Shown: positions 41,605 to 42,319 of the stretch, piece after piece
How positions within the stretch are numbered: position 1 is the first letter of the stretch
How the letters are laid out: each line of letters starts with the position of its first letter
DNA from: a virus
Taxonomy: Duplodnaviria > Heunggongvirae > Uroviricota > Caudoviricetes
Strand: one strand, 5' to 3'
Virus record (IMG/VR): IMGVR_UViG_2721755646_000014
Length of the DNA: 45,219 nt
The notes under the pieces: generated by a model
Database searches by the model: none
The model's input: the letters and a program-made list of their open reading frames with translations, nothing else
Told to the model about the DNA's origin: nothing
Translations under genes and position numbers: made by a program

Positions 41605-41680
41605 ATAATATTAGGCTTAGCCTAATGCAATTGTCAATAGGCTATGCCTAACGCTTCGAGAGTAGGTATTGCCTAATGCG
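41605..41680. promoter_or_regulatory. OR/pR-like divergent control region with palindromic operators
   Basis: TTAGGCTTAGCCTAA and AATAGGCTATGCCTAA palindromes flank a minus-strand TTGACA; a third half-site lies in GTATTGCCTAATGCG. Confidence 0.45.
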
Positions 41681-41704
41681 ATGCGCATAGGAGACTATTA
41701 AGCA

Positions 41705-42181
41705 ATGCTTAGTGGTAAAGACTTAGGCCGAGCGATAGAGCAGGCCATTAACAAAAAAATTGCATCAGGAGCCGTCAAATCAAAGGCGGAAATCGCACGT
41801 CATTTCAAAGTCCAACCACCATCAATCCATGACTGGATTAAGAAAGGTTCGATAAGTAAAGACAAACTTCCAGAACTATGGCGTTTCTTTTCTGATGTGG
41901 TTGGTCCAGAGCATTGGGGGCTTAACGAATACCCCATACCAACCCCATCCACTTCAGATACAAAAAGTGAACTTTTAGACATAAACAGCCTTTATCAAGC
42001 CGCCTCTGATGAAAAAAGAGCAATTGTGGCTTTCCTCTTATCTGGAAATGCTACGGAGCCTAGTTGGGTTGATCATGACGTTCGTGCCTACATTGCCGCA
42101 ATGGAAATGAAGGTAGCTAACTATCTGAAAAATCAAGAATCAAAACGGAAAAGCCAGAACATCACCAAGACAGGAACTTAA
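41705..42181 (+). CDS. racR: RacR-like prophage repressor
   Basis: 158 aa; …KSKAEIARHFKVQPPSIHDWIKKGSISKDKLPELWRFFSDVVGPEHWGL…LYQAASDEKRAIVAFLLSGNATEPSWVDHDVRAYIAAMEMK… matches Rac RacR as recalled. Confidence 0.7.
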   Translation: MLSGKDLGRAIEQAINKKIASGAVKSKAEIARHFKVQPPSIHDWIKKGSISKDKLPELWRFFSDVVGPEHWGLNEYPIPTPSTSDTKSELLDINSLYQAASDEKRAIVAFLLSGNATEPSWVDHDVRAYIAAMEMKVANYLKNQESKRKSQNITKTGT

Positions 42182-42254
42182 ACTTATATGGTCCGACGGG
42201 AAATTCCTAGTTCCCGTTAGTTAACTCCTACTACCTCTCCCACAAACCATCACC

Positions 42255-42319
42255 TATTAGGTCGCACCCAAATCATTAGGCGTAGCCTATTGACAAGCAA
42301 TTAGGCATTTCCTATAGTT
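42255..42319 (+). promoter_or_regulatory. OL/pL-like promoter with the same operator palindromes
   Basis: TTAGGCGTAGCCTAT TTGACA agcaa TTAGGCATTTCCTATAGT: -35 TTGACA and -10 TATAGT about 17 bp apart, overlapped by two operator copies. Confidence 0.4.

Follow-up and report, generated by a model that had tools for sequence, protein, structure and literature searches.

The locus analysed here is very probably the immunity switch of a Rac-type lambdoid prophage, in which operators for the repressor RacR lie on either side of its gene and silence both early operons. It sits in a stretch of 45,219 bases (the window) from a prophage integrated adjoining potC in E. coli O157, and about 1,084 complete E. 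coli genomes carry the module over at least 80% of the query. The original prediction had proposed the lambda logic of OR/pR, cI and OL/pL, and the layout does match that of lambda, with a multi-site divergent operator and a second pair of sites on a downstream promoter co-directional with the repressor gene. The proposed repressor site, TTAGGC-N3-GCCTAA, is verified for the right-hand half in the K-12 orthologue by footprints and EMSA (intergenic region 93% identical; PMC9638921, PMC5700373). The left-hand operator and promoter are predicted from sequence and strongly supported by conservation in two proteobacterial classes, a mosaic joint at the predicted +1 and published transcriptomes of RacR loss. 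For K-12, the right-hand half is thus already published. The left-hand half adds to it in a predictable way; we found no description of the downstream operator set in the literature, where Conter et al. 1996 (kil, racR) may already cover the kil-side promoter and operators.

The repressor gene racR (41705..42181, +) encodes 158 aa, comprising a helix-turn-helix N-domain like that of lambda CI, a disordered linker and a helical C-domain. Adjoining it on the opposite strand is the partner operon, equivalent to the rightward operon of lambda. Its ydaS-like gene (41257..41580, −; Pfam YdaS_toxin 3.8e-30, P22_Cro 1e-8) is the Cro analogue and is 85% identical to K-12 YdaS, and its second gene, ydaT-like (40848..41273, −; Pfam YdaT_toxin 2.6e-10; RefSeq “toxin YdaT family protein”), is the CII analogue. 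The ydaT start codon lies in the spacer of a YdaT-box, ATGATT-CATGAA-AATCAA (41263..41280, −), which is identical to the footprinted K-12 YdaT-box (PMC11879457) and forms the left edge of the immunity-specific cassette. On the other side of racR, the leader and first gene (DUF1391, ydaF/ydfA-like, 42497-42649; Pfam DUF1391 6.6e-30, RefSeq annotation) of the leftward-equivalent operon occupy 42325..42649 (+), with xis (43863-44132) and int (44101-45219) further along the operon. Across immunity types, the leader shows over 90% conservation; between 42325 and 42500 it folds no better than shuffles (z +1.38), so we claim no structured RNA element there.

By its sequence, the repressor of the window is a true RacR. 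It scores 246.8 bits against the equivalog model NCBIfam NF049929 (cutoff 200, E 8.8e-74) and shares 92% identity with K-12 RacR along its full length of 158 residues, and the names racR-like and ydaS-like given earlier to the two genes are upheld by these matches and by those to YdaS_toxin and P22_Cro. A Pfam search of RacR gave no match, and classification relied on NCBIfam and on a structure model; a PDB sequence search found no solved relative. In the model, the N-domain resembles those of lambda CI, P22 C2 and the 434 repressor. No Peptidase_S24 C-terminal domain with an autocleavage site was found in RacR, either by Pfam or in the model, where the C-domain is helical; distant homologues sharing the RacR N-domain, for example in Achromobacter, do carry S24. 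RacR is not an autocleavable repressor of the CI/LexA type, though the DNA-binding domain is common to members. Since RacR lacks the S24 domain, lambda-style RecA-triggered induction does not apply and the induction logic differs from that of lambda. The window holds no perfect LexA box (CTGT-N8-ACAG), and so provides no evidence for an SOS-controlled antirepressor. The Gifsy-type proteins GfoR and GtgR, which LexA-regulated antirepressors control, are likewise short lambdoid repressors without a cleavage domain, and Lemire et al. 2011 listed RacR and DicA in this group.

The operator palindromes, given here without strand, are confined to this locus. The motif TTAGGCNNNGCCTAA with at most two mismatches matches five times in the whole window, always inside 41611-42315, whereas 100 dinucleotide shuffles average 1.26 matches and never exceed 4 (0/100 reach five). 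A repeat search returned a single 18-nt family, ATTAGGCnnnGCCTAATG, whose successive copies start 26, 25, 614 and 25 nt apart, and the right and left operator regions are mutual inverted copies (26 nt at 88%, repeat I1). At three mismatches the motif is unspecific in the window (13 matches versus 15.3 expected), so the three such matches inside the locus, at 41698, 41723 and 42257, rest on position and conservation rather than on statistics. The clusters lie on either side of racR, as had been claimed. The operator copies originally reported are present, but their number, put at four, is not correct: five are clear (three right, two left) and two more, one on each side, are degenerate.

On the right, the stretch between racR and ydaS is occupied by three strong sites and a weak one at the racR ATG, which together cover the minus-strand promoter PydaS, the pR analogue (41608..41637, −). 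This promoter combines a -35 TTGACA (41637-41632), an 18-nt spacer and a -10 TAATAT (41613-41608), and scored 10/12 in a promoter scan; two palindromes overlap it, in agreement with the original prediction. Site 1 (41611..41625), TTAGGCTTAGCCTAA, is a perfect palindrome with no mismatch that lies within the PydaS spacer and overlaps the -10. Its half-sites are conserved in K-12 with a different 3-nt spacer, and its K-12 counterpart is O1, the first operator protected by RacR (PMC9638921). Site 2 (41637..41651), ATAGGCTATGCCTAA, has one mismatch and abuts the PydaS -35; its counterpart in other genera lies at a fixed -42 from the repressor ATG. Site 3 (41662..41676), GTAGGTATTGCCTAA, has two mismatches and is an extra of Escherichia: K-12 and E. 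ruysiae have it, and in other genera there are just three upstream sites. By analogy with the mapping of PracR3 in K-12, the TTGCCT inside site 3 is a possible -35 of a leaderless racR promoter, whose -10 would read GAGACT here and GAGAAT in K-12. Site 4 (41698..41712), TTAAGCAATGCTTAG, is degenerate, with three mismatches, and is centred on the racR ATG. It corresponds to the published K-12 “operator 3/4”, which overlaps the racR start codon (PMC9638921), and is likely to be the autorepression site of racR; a site stands at exactly -7 from the repressor ATG in 17 of 18 non-Escherichia loci, mostly with one or two mismatches. The remaining match, at 41723..41737 (three mismatches), is of a half-site type in which only the left half-site is good.

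On the left, the predicted pL analogue (42290..42318, +) consists of TTGACA (42290-42295), a 17-nt spacer and TATAGT (42313-42318), with a predicted start near 42325. The two palindromes that were said to overlap it do so, the promoter scan gives it 11/12, and it is identical in K-12, where it lies upstream of ydaG-ydaF-kilR-racC-recET; the K-12 sites are at NC_000913.3 1419629-1419668, and the start equivalent to 42325 would fall about 7 nt beyond TATAGT. Left-operator site 1 (42276..42290), TTAGGCGTAGCCTAT, has one mismatch and ends on the base with which the -35 begins; its GCCTATTGAC is invariant in all 12 loci with the downstream pair. Left-operator site 2 (42301..42315), TTAGGCATTTCCTAT, has two mismatches, with TCCTAT as its right half, and lies in the spacer, overlapping the -10. 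Both promoters therefore share one design, in which the -35 hexamer adjoins one site, and the second site occupies the spacer and reaches 3 nt into the -10. The two left sites are 25 bp apart in every locus with the pair, and the pair stands 95-134 bp beyond the racR stop. Additionally, TTAGGTCGCACCCAA (42257..42271, three mismatches) is a tentative candidate for a weak third left-operator site. Its left half-site is conserved in K-12 and the site has two mismatches in E. ruysiae; it is absent outside Escherichia and is separated from the next site by 19 bp, not 25 bp.

Comparison across genera strengthens the assignment. In 21 non-duplicate loci from gamma- and beta-proteobacteria, we found 81 motif sites versus 3.6 in shuffles, and 27 site pairs spaced by 24-26 bp versus none in shuffles. 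In other genera, the distance of the upstream sites from the repressor ATG is constant, at -67, -42 and -7. The fused design GCCTA-TTGACA-N5-TTAGGC-N3-GCCTAATAT occurs in 12 of the 21 loci, from Enterobacterales to Achromobacter and Burkholderia, and besides the window 12 loci carry the downstream pair with an invariant fusion of GCCTA to TTGAC...TTAGGCnnnGCCTAATAT, in surrounding DNA that cannot be aligned. The pair was not seen within the 2.5-kb flank in the other nine, where it may be further away or lost. Among 82 distinct sites the stem sequence is invariant, and positions 3-5 and 11-14 carry 1.65-2.0 bits.

Homology boundaries indicate that the repressor, the cro-like gene and both operators form one exchangeable immunity cassette. 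Homology with prophages that carry LexA-family or other repressors stops at about 41283, just after the YdaT-box, and resumes at 42324. The right-hand mosaic joint thus coincides with the predicted transcription start, 6 nt past the -10 hexamer, and heteroimmune prophages carry palindromes of their own at the same promoter position.

Published work on K-12 Rac supplies the experimental side of the right-hand operator. The motif (T/A)TAGGC-n3-GCCTA(T/A) was reported together with DNase I footprints of RacR on the intergenic sites (NAR 2022, PMC9638921), and RacR binding was also followed by EMSA and ChIP (mSphere 2017, PMC5700373). The K-12 promoter with the PydaS hexamers was mapped by primer extension of the ydaS start, and a -10 substitution abolished its activity (PMC9638921, PMC5700373). 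A further study (PMC11014345) reports that RacR forms an octamer in solution and counts four operators in the intergenic region. Lowered RacR derepresses ydaG, ydaF, kilR, racC, recET, xisR and intR in transcriptomes (PMC6765115, PMC11014345, bioRxiv 10.64898/2026.09.06.749655), and both operons are derepressed and the prophage excises upon RacR depletion in published K-12 experiments. The derepression of leftward genes in RNA-seq could be partly indirect, for example via YdaS, YdaT or excision. E. coli strains with Rac cannot do without RacR, since it keeps the toxic genes ydaS and ydaT silent.

These data can be assembled into a model of the switch. RacR dimers would bind the 15-17 bp palindrome (A)TTAGGC-N3-GCCTAA(T). 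On the ydaS-proximal sites 41611 and 41637, RacR would block the near-consensus PydaS and so keep YdaS (Cro-like), YdaT (CII-like) and the replication genes silent, while the site at the racR ATG (41698), and probably also that at 41662, would set RacR's own level. The left sites, 25 bp apart and fused to the -35 and -10 of a strong promoter, would block the opposite early operon, which here comprises DUF1391, a truncated exonuclease, xis and int. Both early operons would be off as long as RacR is present; when RacR falls, both would fire and the prophage would excise. RacR binding to the two downstream sites, activity of the downstream promoter and cooperativity within each 25-bp pair are steps that we infer.

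One could argue that the functional sites are intergenic only, that the downstream pair is a functionless remnant of right-operator duplication, and that the leftward genes respond via YdaS, YdaT, excision or another promoter. The two regions are indeed inverted copies of each other, the pair is predicted from sequence, and the authors of the Rac studies state that the RacR regulon is not characterised (PMC11014345); our literature search returned no published RacR binding to the downstream pair or mapped transcript start there, and nothing further on RacR ChIP-exo or sbcA promoter work. However, 12 of 21 non-duplicate loci, spread over two proteobacterial classes, preserve the pair with the same 25-bp spacing and the same fusion to the -35 and -10, in surroundings that cannot be aligned. 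Shuffles contain no such pairs, and at the same promoter heteroimmune prophages have palindromes of their own. An inert relic would not survive so much divergence, and we regard this account as improbable. Slightly less probable still is that the palindromes serve chiefly YdaS (Cro-like) or YdaT (CII-like) and not RacR. Cro and the repressor bind common operators in lambda-type switches, and in K-12 YdaS is described as competing with RacR in the intergenic region, where YdaT binds too (PMC11879457, PMC11014345). Yet YdaT recognises another motif, TTGATT-N6-AATCAA, which lies here in the YdaT-box at 41263-41280, and the TTAGGC palindrome tracks the RacR N-domain across genera even where the C-terminal domain is swapped for an S24 peptidase; RacR footprints, moreover, are published (PMC9638921). 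Sharing of sites by YdaS would complement operator control by RacR, not exclude it.

That the palindromes work by folding into RNA or DNA hairpins (intrinsic terminators or attenuators, for instance) and not by binding protein is very improbable. A terminator scan did flag 41626-41610 (−), with a 7-bp stem, a 3-nt loop and then a T-rich run, but this stem has just three G-C pairs and is located within the ydaS promoter, ahead of that gene, instead of following a gene. The stem is invariant, not covarying, across the 82 distinct sites, which indicates base-specific recognition, and K-12 RacR footprints cover these sequences (PMC9638921). Right-operator site 1 was rejected as a terminator for its position within the promoter, its weak stem and its invariant stem bases. 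An Rfam scan of the whole window found nothing in the locus, its only hits, sok and STnc100, lying elsewhere.

As operators for RacR, the sites of the window agree closely with those of K-12 Rac, which has the same five sites (with the one at the racR ATG, the same four intergenic sites), the same operator motif and YdaT-box, the PydaS hexamers and the downstream TTGACA-17-TATAGT promoter with its two sites; its repressor is orthologous and belongs to the same NCBIfam equivalog. Differences lie in the N3 spacers and the DNA between sites, not in the half-sites. The host prophages differ more: that of O157 adjoins potC and carries DnaT-like/P replication genes and a hok/sok locus, its YdaT is of a different subtype, and its leftward operon is short, without ydaG, kilR, racC and recET of K-12.

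The comparison with lambda extends to several details. In both, a multi-site operator separates the divergent repressor and cro-like genes, with at least three operators overlapping both promoters, the sites interlock with the -35 and -10 hexamers, and past the repressor gene a second operator set (predicted here) covers an early promoter that points the same way as that gene. Adjacent operators are spaced 23-24 bp centre to centre in lambda and about 25 bp apart here. The racR mRNA is probably leaderless, the N-domain has the helix-turn-helix of the CI fold, RacR is reported to form octamers (PMC11014345), and the cassette behaves as an exchangeable immunity module. In contrast to lambda, RacR has no sequence similarity to CI and no S24 autocleavage domain, the operator is a 6-3-6 palindrome instead of a 17-mer, four right and two, perhaps three, left sites replace 3 + 3, the operators are about 665 bp apart instead of 2.3 kb, and there is no evident N/nut system. 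In K-12, racR reportedly escapes repression by YdaS (PMC9638921), so the Cro side of the analogy is imperfect. Prophage CP-933P of O157:H7 (paaR2-paaA2-parE2 / ydaS-ydaT) shares the host lineage, the YdaS/YdaT-type lambdoid switch and four intergenic repeats; its PL/OL analogue downstream of the repressor operon has been identified and reporter-tested (PMC8630535). It differs in its unrelated repressor, PaaR2, in an operator consensus of GTTTAGTAA repeats and in a toxin-antitoxin pair embedded in the repressor operon.

For O157 genomes, this analysis annotates the regulatory core of one among many lambdoid prophages; it extends a well-understood paradigm and adds no new principle. RacR loss triggers not only ydaS-ydaT expression but also prophage excision and expression of kilR and recET, and the published RacR analyses that we found cover intergenic operators only. 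A conserved predicted left operator and promoter would directly explain RacR control of the other early operon, which contains xis and int here and kilR and recET in K-12.

A bolder reading, which we offer tentatively and consider rather doubtful as a whole, holds that the downstream pair is the right operator's missing partner in a lambda-like loop. The RacR octamer would bridge both 25-bp-spaced pairs instead of filling four intergenic sites, as its authors proposed; the left operator would be the unrecognised control of kilR, recET and xis-int in K-12 Rac; and the RacR DNA-binding domain with the two-operator layout would be an old module that swaps C-terminal domains. The reported octamer may reflect such looping. 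If this reading were true, the left operator in K-12 Rac would underlie the classical sbcA phenotype and Rac excision, and the domains exchanged between proteobacterial classes would be an S24 peptidase and a helical oligomeriser. The pairs to be bridged are about 640-665 bp apart here and up to ~2.5 kb apart in beta-proteobacterial relatives. From the -67 site to the first downstream site, start to start, five Enterobacterales loci measure 616, 639, 648, 654 and 661 bp; they share no common helical phase, so phasing supports looping neither way.

A weak hairpin (tentative; 42195..42218, +; -10.9 kcal/mol, z -1.29) follows the racR stop. It fails the T-run criterion of the terminator scan and also forms at the same place in K-12 in spite of sequence differences; it is a possible terminator that insulates the downstream promoter.

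The 158-aa plus-strand protein encoded by racR scores 246.8 bits with the NCBIfam equivalog model for RacR, above its cutoff of 200, and is 92% identical to K-12 RacR, while a Pfam search of it gave no match. An AlphaFold2 model (mean pLDDT 80) predicts a five-helix N-domain and a helical C-domain, with a disordered linker at residues 80-89. The minus-strand neighbour of racR matches YdaS_toxin and P22_Cro (Pfam) and shares 85% identity with K-12 YdaS, and the gene beyond ydaS belongs to the YdaT family (Pfam).

With up to two mismatches allowed, TTAGGC-N3-GCCTAA has five matches across the 45 kb, at 41611, 41637, 41662, 42276 and 42301; shuffled sequences gave a mean of 1.26 matches at this threshold, and none of 100 contained five. 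A repeat search grouped the sites as a single 18-nt repeat family with spacings of 26, 25, 614 and 25. Specificity was lost at three mismatches, the level at which two degenerate sites were matched: TTAAGCAATGCTTAG at 41698-41712, centred on the racR ATG, and another at 42257-42271, 19 bp ahead of the first downstream site. The four operator copies of the original prediction are thus all real, but their number was too low, with five clear and two degenerate sites present. A promoter scan of 41200-42800 revealed exactly two sigma-70-like promoters, TTGACA-18-TAATAT on the minus strand (41637-41608) and TTGACA-17-TATAGT on the plus strand (42290-42318), which are the two palindrome-overlapped TTGACA promoters that had been proposed. 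At both, one palindrome abuts the -35 hexamer, and its neighbour fills the spacer and shares 3 nt with the -10 hexamer. The observation behind the proposed lambda-type immunity switch is therefore confirmed, and its interpretation is supported.

The five sites and the two promoters are all present in K-12 Rac. Its racR/ydaS intergenic region is 93% identical to that of the window, the differences falling mostly within N3 spacers or in the DNA that separates the sites; downstream of racR, identity is 89%, the promoter hexamers are the same and the half-sites differ at one position only. In K-12, binding of RacR between racR and ydaS was demonstrated with EMSA, thermal-shift and ChIP assays, and three palindromic repeats were noted there (Krishnamurthi et al. 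2017, PMC5700373). The K-12 ydaS start was mapped to the same TTGACA/TAATAT promoter, which a -10 substitution abolished (Wisniewska et al. 2022, PMC9638921), and RacR footprinting yielded the motif (T/A)TAGGC-n3-GCCTA(T/A) and placed an operator across the racR ATG (PMC9638921). Later K-12 papers refer to four operators in the intergenic region, and RacR is reported to form an octamer (PMC11014345; PMC11879457). Predicting the binding site directly from sequence, as was claimed, is therefore correct, and for the right operator the published footprints of the K-12 orthologue have already established it. The accessible Rac literature is silent on any site or promoter downstream of racR, and the RacR regulon, ydaFG included, is described as not characterised (PMC11014345). 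A left operator with its promoter is to be expected in a lambda-type switch; those of RacR-type immunity appear undescribed in that literature, which does not include Conter et al. 1996.

Four lines of evidence say that the downstream set is functional: conservation, published transcriptomes, a tested precedent in CP-933P, and mosaic boundaries. A profile of RacR homologues applied to species-level genomes gave 23 loci (21 non-duplicate) from Escherichia, Mixta, Morganella, Proteus, Klebsiella, Erwinia, Achromobacter, Burkholderia, Pigmentiphaga, Nitrosomonas, Herbaspirillum, Azoarcus and others. Together these loci contain 81 motif sites (3.6 in shuffles) and 27 pairs spaced 24-26 bp (none in shuffles). 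Upstream sites keep constant distances from the repressor ATG (-67, -42 and -7), with one more in Escherichia (-94, -68, -43 and -7). The downstream pair is present in 12 loci besides the window, always with 25-bp spacing, and lies 61-134 bp beyond the stop codon in Enterobacterales and merely 73 bp beyond it in A. xylosoxidans. In Achromobacter marplatensis, Achromobacter sp., Burkholderia and Pigmentiphaga the distance is 764-1945 bp, with additional ORFs between; three homologue loci from these genera have repressor-to-pair gaps of 1.2-1.9 kb (L016, 3601-5036; L020, 2977-4897; L021, 3406-4614). The gap ORFs are co-directional in L016 and L020, the two loci with ORFs listed, and occupy the position of rexAB in lambda.

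Every downstream pair reads, in order, TTAGGCnnnGCCTA, TTGAC(A/T), n5 and (T/A)TAGGCnnn(G/T/A)C(C/T)TA, and ends in a -10 hexamer of TAATAT, TACTAT, TAACAT or TATAGT; each site is thus fused to one hexamer, site 1 to the -35 and site 2 to the -10. The flanks of the pairs are unalignable among loci. Such depth of conservation contradicts the view of the downstream pair as an inert duplicated relic, and the position of the palindromes together with their base invariance contradicts a role as hairpin or terminator. When RacR is lowered, ydaG, ydaF, kilR, ydaE, racC, recE, recT, ralR, xisR and intR go up with ydaS and ydaT (PMC6765115; PMC11014345; bioRxiv 10.64898/2026.09.06.749655). Moreover, the heteroimmune O157 prophage CP-933P has a reporter-validated PL/OL analogue at the same position (PMC8630535).

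Thousands of E. coli prophages have ydaT and the DUF1391 leader in common, with unrelated repressor/cro pairs. In alignment they diverge from the window at about 41283, just beyond a YdaT-box over the ydaT start, and homology with heteroimmune prophages returns at 42324, 6 nt past TATAGT and in effect at the predicted +1. Other immunity types carry, at the equivalent place, a -35 hexamer and a spacer palindrome of their own (GGTAAC-TCTT-GTTACC; ATACC-TAT-GGGTAT). Repressor, cro analogue and the two operator sets therefore constitute one inherited immunity cassette, as in lambda-type imm regions. The YdaT-box, ATGATTCATGAAAATCAA (41263-41280, minus strand), holds the ydaT start codon within its spacer and is identical to the footprinted box of K-12 Rac, although the window YdaT is of a different subtype. 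This box differs from the palindromes, which argues against YdaT as their binder; sharing of the palindromes between YdaS and RacR is compatible with the RacR switch.

In the proposed switch, RacR dimers at 41611 and 41637 would occlude PydaS, dimers at 42276 and 42301 would occlude the leftward-equivalent promoter, and the site over the racR ATG would mediate negative autoregulation. The K-12 promoter PracR3 starts at the racR ATG (PMC9638921); its window counterparts are TTGCCT, within site 41662, and GAGACT/GACTAT, and the racR mRNA is probably leaderless. The invariant 25-bp spacing of site pairs in both operators suggests pairwise cooperativity and, with the reported octamer, allows for possible lambda-like looping between them. 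Because RacR has no S24 domain (Pfam, AlphaFold2 model), induction by the lambda route is impossible; no perfect LexA box was found in the window, and RacR has been classed with the Gifsy repressors, which antirepressors inactivate (Lemire et al. 2011).

The RacR N-domain (residues 1-73) has 35 invariant positions among 20 sequences and is fused to Peptidase_S24 in many beta-proteobacterial and some Pectobacterium homologues (proteins P0101, P0102 and P0114; loci L016, L021, L024, L026 and L028, with repressor genes from locus position 2501 or 1268). Operator motif and layout are unchanged in these loci. Therefore, the DNA-binding module and the two-operator architecture predate the RacR-type C-domain, and RacR looks like a C-terminal domain swap upon a classical cleavable repressor.

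Positions 41200-42700 match the chromosome of E. coli O157 strain FDAARGOS_293 with 100% identity and are covered to at least 80% in 1,084 of 5,426 complete E. coli genomes. RefSeq gene order runs replication protein P, DnaT-like protein, YdaT-family protein, HTH protein, racR, DUF1391, an opposite-strand hypothetical gene, truncated 3'-5' exonuclease, excisionase and integrase, then potC, which puts the locus at the int-proximal end of a lambdoid prophage, within its early-control region. The exonuclease gene that separates the immunity region from xis (43400-43801, Rv2179c-like domain) is a truncated pseudogene according to its annotation, and the leftward operon of this O157 prophage is without kil, recET or N-like genes. 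Antisense inside it lies a 171-aa minus-strand gene (42764-43279), with no family match in Pfam, NCBIfam or RefSeq results; it sits where K-12 Rac has sieB and so may serve in superinfection exclusion.

In prophages with unrelated repressors, conservation of the predicted leftward transcript's leader (42325-42496) exceeds 90%. The 5' end of this leader is C-rich and G-poor (GC skew -0.52), and its predicted folding is no better than that of shuffled sequences. A role as a Rho-utilisation region is possible and would fit the known silencing by Rho/NusG of kilR in Rac and dicBF in Qin. A small hairpin after the racR stop codon (42195-42218, -10.9 kcal/mol), found at the same place in K-12 despite differing sequence, may be a weak terminator parting racR transcription from the downstream promoter. 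Elsewhere in the prophage, Rfam identified sRNA STnc100 (31879-32045, 102 bits) and sok antitoxin RNA (35669-35843, 114 bits), both on the minus strand, the latter adjoining a hokD-type toxin gene (RefSeq annotation).
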